Virus record (IMG/VR): IMGVR_UViG_2617270946_000017 | Direction: 5' to 3' (one strand) | DNA length: 5,362 nucleotides | Origin: a virus | Taxonomy: Duplodnaviria > Heunggongvirae > Uroviricota > Caudoviricetes | Part shown: positions 2,696-4,609 of the stretch, piece by piece | How the letters are laid out: each line of letters begins with the position of its first letter | How positions within the stretch are numbered: position 1 is the first letter of the stretch | Program-made: the position numbers and the translations under genes | The notes under the pieces: generated by a model | What the model saw: the letters and a program-made list of their open reading frames with translations, nothing else | What the model was told of the DNA's origin: nothing | Database searches by the model: none

Positions 2696-4609
2696 TTACG
2701 CGTTATTCACTTCCACCACGATACTGTCAATCAGTACCGGGTAAGTCGCATTTTTAGTGATATCGGTCACGCGCAACTTGTCTGCCGTAAACGTGCCGAC
2801 CGGAGACTGCGACAGCATGAATGGTGTCCCGTCCTTACCATCAATGACCGGCGTCACCTCAATACTGTTGTTACCGGCAAAACGGAAGCCCAGCGTATGC
2901 CATTCGTTATTAAATGCGCCGAATGACCCCAGCTTCGTGTTCTGCGCCGTGTTTCCTTTGTGATACATCACGTTAAGGTCTGTGGCATCGCTCTGTACGT
3001 AGAACGATGCCAGCAGGTCCGCACCATTACCAGCATCATGCTCAAGGTACCAGGGGGCTCTTCCTGTTTCCTTGGTCAGTTTCATTGCCTTACCCCCGCT
3101 GGCTCCGGCATCATCCACGATTTGAGCCTTGCCACCTCCGGCAGCCCAACCCTGTGGTGTCAACCGTCCTTCAGACTCAGATGCCCGGTAAGCAAATAGC
3201 GTACTCATCGTCGTGGTGTCTGCGGGTGGCGTGGACGGTTTTGATGGTGTATCAGGTGACGGCTTCTCATCCGGTGGTGTCACGGTCTGCCCGCGCATCA
3301 GTTCAGCCGTGCGCCCTGCATGGAGCATAATAGCTGAGGCCAGACGGTCTGAAATGACGCCCCTGCGTGCCCATGAGCTGAAATGGCTGTCACGCTGTGT
3401 CGAAACAAAACTGCCCTGGGTTCGGGATGCTGCACCGTAATACCCGACAGCCACAATATCCGGGTCTTCCGCCGGAGCATTCGTTGGCGTGCTCTGTCCA
3501 TTCTCATCCGTCAGGAACGGTACAAAGAAAATTTTCTGTGCTTCCTTGCCTTTGTAGCCACCGTATACTGCCTCATATTTATCGGTGCCAGCGTTTTTCC
3601 AGTAATACGTGGTATCACCGCAAATCCACGGCACCGTGGTGGCATTTCCACTCACGCACTGCGCAGCAAGCGGAGCCAGGTCAGTTCTGAACTGCTGAAC
3701 CATGGTCGTGAATAAACTATTATGCTGCTGGCTTCCTGAGGCAAGGTCTGCCTCTCCCTGCATCCAGACCACAGCCAGAAGTTTGTTTTTCGGGTTTTTC
3801 GCCAGCGCGACTTTGGTGCGGCTTACCAGGTCCTGATACAGAGGTTTACCGGCCCCCCAGCGTGAAGAATCAGCGGAAGCACCGCTGGCCTCACTGAATG
3901 AGCCGTCGGCTCCAGTGGTGAATGCTGACCCGCCACGACAACAGGGCACCAGAAGTATCCCGGCATTCTGTGGGATATAGGGAAGCAGTTTTTTGGCAAT
4001 ATGCAACCCCTGACCGACAGTCCCGTACTGGCCTTTTGCCAGATCAGCTTTCGGGTGGTTTATCCCGCTCATATCCTGAACATCATGCAGGCAGTGGTCT
4101 GCCGGAATGATGTCGTTGTATGTACACGACGTACCGTTGGGCGTTACCGTACTGCGGCGTGCCAGTTGCTTAATGCGTGGGTCCGGGCGGTCAAACGAAT
4201 CCGGTAACGGCAGCCCCTCGCCGTAGGCCATGCCATTTGACTGACCCGCGAGAATGACAACAAAGTAATATTCCGGCTCTGAACTGCTGCCATTCGTGCT
4301 ACCGGAAGGCCCGGCGTTATCCGGTGCATTCCAGTCGGAGGGCGTGAGCGTTCCGGCCACGTCAGATGTGATTGGAATGATGCCAGTCACGCCTGAACTG
4401 GTGATTTCTGCACTGGGATTACCGGATACCGGCATTACCCATAATGGCTCTTTCGTGCTGAAGCGGATCACGCAGTCTGCGAAGGTGATCCCCCCTTTAT
4501 TACCCGAAGGGCGGAAAGGGCTTTCAATAAATGCCACCGTGCCACCGGCAACCTTGACTGAAAACTCTCCGGGCATGGCGGAGAGCATTTTCCACTTGGA
4601 GTCTGACAT
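2696..4609 (-). CDS. SASA/SGNH-family carbohydrate esterase (putative sialate O-acetylesterase-like, prophage NanS-p-like), 637 aa: N-terminal beta-rich domain, central esterase domain, Pro/Ser/Thr linker, C-terminal putative carbohydrate-binding domain
   Basis: GQSN motif (codons at 4235-4246, residues 122-125, in VVILAGQSNGMAYGEG) and WMQGEAD (residues 282-288) are the signature blocks of the SASA-type SGNH esterase family. A DSH triad candidate lies near residue 407. Linker TPPDEKPSPDTPSKPSTPPADTTT (3209-3283) is followed by a roughly 170-aa C-terminal domain. Single long ORF with no internal stops. The ATG at 4609 has only a weak SD. Confidence 0.8.
   Translation of the reverse strand: MSDSKWKMLSAMPGEFSVKVAGGTVAFIESPFRPSGNKGGITFADCVIRFSTKEPLWVMPVSGNPSAEITSSGVTGIIPITSDVAGTLTPSDWNAPDNAGPSGSTNGSSSEPEYYFVVILAGQSNGMAYGEGLPLPDSFDRPDPRIKQLARRSTVTPNGTSCTYNDIIPADHCLHDVQDMSGINHPKADLAKGQYGTVGQGLHIAKKLLPYIPQNAGILLVPCCRGGSAFTTGADGSFSEASGASADSSRWGAGKPLYQDLVSRTKVALAKNPKNKLLAVVWMQGEADLASGSQQHNSLFTTMVQQFRTDLAPLAAQCVSGNATTVPWICGDTTYYWKNAGTDKYEAVYGGYKGKEAQKIFFVPFLTDENGQSTPTNAPAEDPDIVAVGYYGAASRTQGSFVSTQRDSHFSSWARRGVISDRLASAIMLHAGRTAELMRGQTVTPPDEKPSPDTPSKPSTPPADTTTMSTLFAYRASESEGRLTPQGWAAGGGKAQIVDDAGASGGKAMKLTKETGRAPWYLEHDAGNGADLLASFYVQSDATDLNVMYHKGNTAQNTKLGSFGAFNNEWHTLGFRFAGNNSIEVTPVIDGKDGTPFMLSQSPVGTFTADKLRVTDITKNATYPVLIDSIVVEVNNA

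Follow-up and report, generated by a model that had tools for sequence, protein, structure and literature searches.

A NanS-p-family esterase gene with an alternative N-terminal domain in Mu-like prophages, and a natural allele with a deletion in the C-terminal domain

We analysed a stretch of 5,362 nucleotides of phage DNA (Caudoviricetes; IMG/VR virus record IMGVR_UViG_2617270946_000017), hereafter called the window. An open reading frame (ORF) for a protein of 637 residues lies in it at the right end of a Mu-like prophage, between the invertase gene gin and the com-mom operon. This ORF is a genuine gene of the NanS-p family. With a probability of about 75% it encodes a NanS-p-family sialate O-acetylesterase that is carried as an accessory gene of the Mu-like prophage. 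The copy in the window is both a recombinant and a deletion allele. Of this interpretation, the homology, the conservation of the motifs, the synteny, the mosaic make-up and the deletion are firm. NanS-p esterases are considered to aid the growth of enterohaemorrhagic Escherichia coli on O-acetylated mucin sialic acids and, to our knowledge, have been studied only in lambdoid Shiga toxin (Stx) prophages and in cryptic prophages. Our comparisons point to a second, unreported NanS-p architecture that is carried by Mu-like prophages, including one of an O157:H7 strain.

The central part of the protein is homologous to the chromosomal sialate esterase of E. coli. Pfam SASA is matched by residues 117–312 (E=7.5e-14), and residues 110–428 align with E. 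coli NanS (YjhS; PDB 3PT5) at E=1.6e-117, the catalytic domains being about 57% identical over 320 aligned positions. In the same alignment, once the 11-residue tag offset of 3PT5 is subtracted, Ser124 and His409 fall on NanS Ser19 and His301, the catalytic residues of NanS. Residues 469–636 match the crystallised C-terminal domain of NanS-p (PDB 6YP6; E=1.9e-68), and Pfam DUF6645 is found in the same protein at E=1.6e-43. A tblastn search against phage genomes returned 349 records, nearly all of them from Stx-converting or related lambdoid phages, 933W included; identity to the NanS-p of 933W is 59–63% over residues 94–636 (about 60% by tblastn). The first-pass annotation had assigned the protein to the SASA/SGNH esterases from the motifs GQSN and WMQGEAD and had likened it to the three-part NanS-p proteins. 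Both the family and the likeness are borne out by these matches. The three modules are real as well, except that the N-terminal one is not DUF1737 and the C-terminal one has a 47-residue internal deletion. In PHROGs the esterase falls only in families of unknown function, and NCBIfam and PADLOC gave no meaningful match for the esterase or for the small neighbouring ORFs.

The N-terminal part of the protein is different from that of the lambdoid enzymes. Pfam has no match in residues 1–94 of the window protein or in the N-termini of its relatives, whereas the N-terminus of 933W NanS-p matches DUF1737 at E=4.3e-18. A comparison with the DUF1737 profile had been proposed as a check in the first-pass annotation and its outcome was negative, hhalign giving a probability of 0.3%, that is, no relationship. 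Aligned with 933W NanS-p, the window protein becomes homologous at about residue 110, at an ...EPEYY motif on which Mu-type and lambdoid sequences converge. AlphaFold2 (AF2) applied to residues 1–111 with a five-sequence alignment predicts an all-beta domain over residues 7–79, with a predicted local distance difference test score (pLDDT) of about 81–90 at residues 11–70; a Ser/Gly/Pro linker predicted to be disordered comes after it. Fold comparison of this domain gave only weak cupin-like matches. A HMMER search of 1.84 billion representative proteins found the domain only in E. coli/Shigella, where the E. coli matches are fragments, and in one protein of Salmonella enterica (P0126); two further matches are apparently spurious. 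Two scans of genome contigs for remote homologues of the domain found nothing. The Salmonella domain is 30% identical to that of the window and is again fused to a GQSN esterase. Its locus (L038 8792–10461, GCA_037428405.1) belongs to a Mu-like prophage with a tail-fibre segment and gin upstream, followed by two small ORFs (58 and 87 residues) and then the esterase; the contig ends inside the gene. In E. coli the domain occurs as type A, the one in the window, and as type B; identity between the two is 61%. The proportions of nonsynonymous (pN) and synonymous (pS) differences between them are 0.23 and 0.78 (pN/pS about 0.3), a divergence that indicates purifying selection, with synonymous sites saturated. 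As far as these searches reach, the N-terminal domain appears to be a module of about 75 residues that is confined to the esterases of enterobacterial Mu-like prophages and stands in the place of DUF1737.

The same gene is found in many related prophages. We recovered 34 IMG/VR loci with the N-terminal domain, and in every one of them (34/34) gin is followed by the esterase, DUF1378, DUF826, a slot of variable content, com, and either mom or a C5 methyltransferase gene. The type A junction is present in 28 of 5,426 complete E. coli genomes and the type B junction in 205 (together about 233, or about 4%), type B including the Mu-like prophage of O157:H7 strain 380-94. The com-mom operon, searched for at a minimum of 90% identity and 80% query coverage, occurs in about 226 of the 5,426. 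The conserved gene order and these counts make the esterase a regular component of the prophage lineage. In complete genomes with the same element the adjoining genes are of Mu type; they are those for the tail fibre and its assembly, the baseplate, the tape measure, the sheath, the portal, the morphogenesis of the head and lysis, and those for Mor, Gam, transposases B and A and the repressor. The Mu-like rather than lambdoid context that had been suggested from the sequence is confirmed by these neighbours in identical prophages and by the Pfam matches of gin, com and mom. An accompanying suggestion, that the gene is lysogenic-conversion cargo, needs refinement in that it is no one-off cargo gene, given that its position is kept in all recovered loci and that it is present in some 233 complete genomes.

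Comparison of the domains one by one reveals the mosaic origin of the gene. The intact type A allele and the lambdoid DUF1737-containing protein P0031 are 14% identical in the N-terminal domain (unrelated), 93% in the catalytic domain and 91% in the C-terminal domain. Against the type B alleles of Mu-like prophages the corresponding values are 59–61%, 64–70% and 40–74%. At the DNA level, megablast homology to lambdoid nanS-p loci extends from inside the DUF1378 gene (~2423–2493) to ~4248–4294, i.e. to residue ~105–120; its 5' limit falls at the end of the Ser/Gly/Pro-rich linker or just beyond. These identities, taken with the limits of DNA homology, identify the gene as a recombinant, joined close to where the catalytic domain begins. 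The catalytic and C-terminal parts have been exchanged together with DUF1378 between lambdoid and Mu-like phages, and the N-terminal domain stays with the Mu-like ones. Type A and type B prophages have 90–95% DNA identity over about 37 kb of backbone. The divergence between them is sharp from DUF826 through DUF1378, the esterase and gin to the tail-fibre G segment, where identity is 67–76% or undetectable. The esterase is part of the hypervariable host-interaction end of the phage. The idea that the type of N-terminal domain tracks the structural genes was rejected, as the backbones are 90–95% identical and the domains only 61%.

The allele in the window is shorter than its relatives. It is without 47 residues (LLGKGGLVSCRFKLDGALTANQYALALYWPVSALPQGVTLEGNAGHN), which are residues 532–578 of an intact 684-residue allele of the same lineage, WP_001284083.1; apart from that, the two proteins differ in one residue. 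In the DNA this is an in-frame deletion of 141 bp between two copies of ACCTGCTGG, and flanking 9-bp direct repeats are a signature of slipped-strand or microhomology-mediated deletion. The alignment of the window protein with 6YP6 is split into two pieces with chain positions ~69–107 missing, and the window allele matches positions 40–119 of the DUF6645 profile as compared to 1–119 in the intact allele. All other copies examined, namely the listed complete-genome matches and the viral contigs of the 34 IMG/VR loci, have the 141 bp and encode about 680–692 residues. The exact 637-residue protein is on record in one draft assembly only (GCA_000704605.1). We take the deletion to be real but rare. 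Two further damaged alleles, of 499 residues (L008) and 523 residues (L029), are cut in or before the C-terminal domain, and loss of this domain appears to recur.

The deleted segment was placed by sequence alignment to 6YP6 and 933W and not on a full-length model; AF2 prediction of the full-length 684-residue allele with 30 close homologues had a mean pLDDT of 36.8 and gave no reliable model. In 933W the segment aligns to ...ANQYVMAFYW..., which holds Y510 and Y515. Together with Y540 and F611 these are the aromatic residues of the carbohydrate-binding site proposed from 6YP6 (PMC10462455). Judged from the alignment, the deletion removes the equivalents of Y510 and Y515, two of these four.

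One may ask whether this copy is simply decaying, with the C-terminal domain misfolded by the deletion, the protein degraded and the gene no longer under selection in this lysogen. Such an explanation overlaps with ours, and we regard it as possible but doubtful. The loss of DUF6645 profile positions 1–39 along with two of the four proposed binding aromatics speaks for it, as does the record of the allele, which comes from a single draft assembly and is absent from the listed matches in 5,426 complete genomes and from the 34 viral contigs. The other damaged alleles (L008, 499 residues; L029, 523 residues) point the same way, and some prophage copies are themselves defective, the AST198 copy having lost head genes. 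However, the deletion is in frame, only one other residue is changed with respect to the intact allele and the catalytic residues are untouched. Moreover, NanS functions without a C-terminal domain, and in phage phi24B the C-terminal domain is reportedly cleaved off anyway.

For the substrate, the expression, the release route and the effect of the deletion we infer the following. The protein would be an esterase with Ser124 as nucleophile and His409 as catalytic base, held in the cytoplasm until the prophage lyses the cell. A signal peptide was not detected (top 15-residue hydropathy in the first 75 residues 1.08), so the protein should be cytoplasmic until lysis, and release at phage-induced lysis is the simplest exit; the same is assumed for NanS-p. 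Outside the cell, the enzyme would strip sialic acids, whether free or bound to mucin, of 9-O-acetyl and related groups, and the deacetylated Neu5Ac could then be taken up and catabolised by E. coli. For the window allele our expectation is that the catalytic core still acts on small substrates. Chromosomal NanS is no more than a catalytic domain (the 3PT5 chain has 337 residues), so a core can be active alone. We also expect that glycan targeting by the C-terminal domain would be lost or that the domain would be misfolded.

With regard to expression, 85 bp separate gin from the start of the esterase gene, both being on one strand, and the gap contains only a weak 6-bp hairpin with a T-run. 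Gin is expressed in Mu lysogens. It is plausible that the esterase is transcribed by read-through from gin. A scan of the window for promoters and terminators found promoter-like sites no more often than in shuffled sequence. Both the DUF1378 gene and the DUF826 gene come close behind the esterase, each with a strong Shine-Dalgarno sequence; this suggests that the three genes form a unit. Just 3' of the esterase stop codon, at ~2650–2682, there is a GC-rich hairpin (GCCGCCGGT, 15 nt, ACCGGCGGC). Its T-run is on the plus-strand side, and it would therefore terminate antisense transcripts and not those of the esterase.

Several points weigh against the proposed enzyme function. The deletion, which leaves a truncated jelly roll, may destabilise the whole protein and not just the C-terminal domain. 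Characterised NanS-p enzymes are only about 60–70% identical to the window protein, and the activity of Mu-type alleles is extrapolated over this distance. The 637-residue allele, coming from one draft assembly, may have been inactivated recently; that it is an error of the assembly is possible too, but less likely. The scan of the window did not turn up a convincing promoter, and expression in lysogens we only infer. Finally, the NanS-p homologue gp84 of phi24B has been described as a processed capsid-decoration protein that is cleaved between domains (2026 preprint), and by analogy the picture of an enzyme released at lysis may be incomplete for the classic family.

In gp84 it is the DUF1737 domain that binds the capsid, where it forms hexamers on the capsid hexons (2026 preprint). 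By analogy, the Mu-specific N-terminal domain might anchor the esterase to the Mu-like particle, and its esterase and lectin parts would, during infection, have mucus or acetylated surface glycans as their targets. Display of this kind is compatible with the enzymatic assignment and differs from release at lysis only in the place and time of action; we consider it unlikely. It draws on the capsid-binding role of DUF1737 in the processed phi24B protein and on the position of the window's N-terminal domain, which is a different, small and, by prediction, well-folded domain where DUF1737 would stand. This domain is under purifying selection (pN/pS about 0.3), is limited to Mu-like prophages, one in Salmonella included, and persists through the exchange of the other parts of the gene with lambdoid alleles. 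The gene also adjoins the tail-fibre G segment and is equally divergent. On the other hand, the N-terminal domain does not resemble virion proteins, and its type does not co-vary with the structural genes. A wider version of the idea, which is speculative and in our estimate improbable, is that the N-terminal domain is a module for attachment to Mu-like phage particles or, alternatively, a second module that binds glycans. The esterase-lectin cassette would then be shuffled, near the linker, between lambdoid podo- or siphoviruses and Mu-like myoviruses, each lineage supplying its own anchor for virion display of a mucus-active enzyme.

It is highly improbable that the enzyme deacetylates O-antigen or O-acetylated K1-type polysialic acid for receptor modification, superinfection exclusion or adsorption: such substrates have been raised for NanS-p (PMC8065619) and the gene lies beside the tail-fibre inversion module that sets host range and is as divergent as that module, but there is no signal peptide or membrane anchor to bring the protein to the surface of a living lysogen, the closest characterised relatives are sialate-specific esterases and nothing in the analysis points to O-antigen.

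The features of the esterase gene and of its neighbours are collected in Table 1.

Table 1. Positions of the esterase gene, its domains and motifs, and neighbouring genes in the window (residue numbers are those of the 637-residue protein; RefSeq coordinates were transferred from an identical prophage)
Feature	Position	Strand	Basis or remark
Esterase ORF, 637 aa	2696..4609	minus	NanS-p family, probable sialate O-acetylesterase; Mu-like prophage variant, deletion allele; stop codon 2696–2698
N-terminal domain, residues 5–80, predicted all-beta	4370..4597	minus	Not DUF1737; only on esterases of Mu-like prophages
Ser/Gly/Pro-rich linker, residues 81–111	4277..4369	minus	pLDDT <50 for residues 82–111
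Catalytic SASA/SGNH domain, residues 112–430	3320..4276	minus	NanS homology (3PT5), Pfam SASA
GQSN, block I motif, residues 122–125	4235..4246	minus	Ser124 codon 4238–4240, aligned to NanS Ser19
WMQGEAD, residues 282–288	3746..3766	minus	SGNH block III variant typical of the SASA family
His409 codon, DSHF motif (block V)	3383..3385	minus	Aligned to NanS His301
Inter-domain linker, residues 431–467, Pro/Ser/Thr-rich	3209..3319	minus	Alignment with 933W
C-terminal lectin-like domain (DUF6645, 6YP6 type), 47 residues short internally	2699..3208	minus	6YP6 and Pfam matches
Deletion scar: sole remaining copy of the 9-bp direct repeat ACCTGCTGG	3010..3018	minus	DNA alignment
gin-type serine invertase, 190 aa	4695..5267	minus	Pfam Resolvase E=1.6e-51, HTH_7
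DUF1378 gene, 60 aa, one predicted transmembrane helix	2369..2551	minus	Pfam E=1.2e-31, RefSeq coordinates
DUF826 gene, 84 aa	2079..2333	minus	Pfam E=6.4e-16, synteny in 34 loci
com-mom operon	470..1361 (com 1161–1361, mom 470–1207)	minus	Pfam Zn_ribbon_Com and Mom, RefSeq annotation

Bases 1 to about 341 of the window are the 3' part of the host gene malX (phosphotransferase system maltose IICB), and the right end of the prophage abuts on it at ~338–342. This makes the ORF listed at 1..477 a chimera of host and phage sequence, and the source strain has a disrupted malX. The insertion site varies, being malX here, gspM in AST198 and elsewhere in other genomes, as expected for transposition. 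AST198 has three copies of the element. The copy examined is without about 2.3 kb including the gpT major head gene (L041 223–1440 as compared to L042 17200–19493), partial protease and hypothetical genes are fused in it, and it is defective. At the other end of the window, upstream of gin, a gix-like sequence TTCCCGTAAACCGAGGTTTTC is found at ~5335–5355; it resembles the Gin recombination site (gix) that borders the invertible segment of the tail fibre. About 96 nt upstream of gin the source contig stops, probably by an assembly break in that region.

In the leader of the com-mom operon (1405–1495) GATC occurs at 1409, 1422 and 1491, the first two inside a palindrome AATCGATCGACAAAAACGATCGATT, an arrangement that brings to mind the region of Dam-dependent control of Mu mom. 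In some Mu-like prophages of type B (L003 9420–10472; L027, L032 and H198) a 350-residue C5 DNA cytosine methyltransferase takes the place of mom after com, as if one anti-restriction DNA-modification gene had been swapped for another behind an unchanged com leader. Between DUF826 and com there is an orphan ORF on the plus strand at 1618–1911 (RefSeq start 1651; 86–97 residues) in a low-GC patch (0.37–0.40), for which Pfam, NCBIfam, PHROGs and PADLOC gave no match. This slot is variable, the ORF being absent or replaced in L007, L019, L024 and the type B loci.

The enzyme class itself is already known, and database labels such as 'sialate O-acetylesterase' or 'DUF6645 domain-containing protein' are already in use for such proteins. 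[quoted passage not shown] Counts of nanS-p that rely on DUF1737 or on a lambdoid context therefore miss the Mu-type genes. The N-terminal swap, together with the report of DUF1737 as a capsid anchor, allows a direct test of modular virion-displayed enzymes, and the natural 47-residue deletion allele is a ready probe of what the C-terminal lectin-like domain contributes to activity. Full-text literature searches, whose coverage did not include Rangel et al. (2016) and Saile et al. (2016), gave no account of the Mu-like context or of the alternative N-terminal domain.

Compared to the lambdoid NanS-p proteins, the window protein shares two of the three modules and does not have DUF1737 or the location in the lambdoid late region. 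Common features are the NanS-like SASA catalytic domain with identical motif blocks, the Pro/Ser-rich linker and a homologous DUF6645 domain, which is incomplete in the window allele. DUF1378 and DUF826 genes follow the esterase in both settings, and a DUF1378 gene after nanS-p has been described in lambdoid phages (PMC10462455). The lambdoid proteins begin with DUF1737, whereas the window protein has an unrelated beta domain of ~75 residues. Lambdoid nanS-p lies between stx/Q and the holin gene (the layout of 933W); the window gene stands in the transposable prophage of a Mu-like myovirus, with gin on one side and com-mom on the other. In addition, the window allele is 47 residues short in the C-terminal domain. 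The nearest characterised relatives, NanS and the NanS-p enzymes of EDL933 and O104:H4, have been shown by experiment to remove O-acetyl groups from Neu5,9Ac2 and from mucin O-glycans and to support growth on Neu5,9Ac2 (review PMC8065619).

With NanS (YjhS), the chromosomal 9-O-acetyl-N-acetylneuraminate esterase of E. coli, the window protein shares the Ser and His catalytic residues. NanS is a single-domain protein of the nan regulon, whereas the window protein is phage-borne and has extra N- and C-terminal modules. The closest parallel in layout for the N-terminal domain is the DUF1737 of phi24B gp84, which has the same position, is similarly small and is also followed by a flexible Ser/Pro-rich linker. 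[quoted passage not shown]

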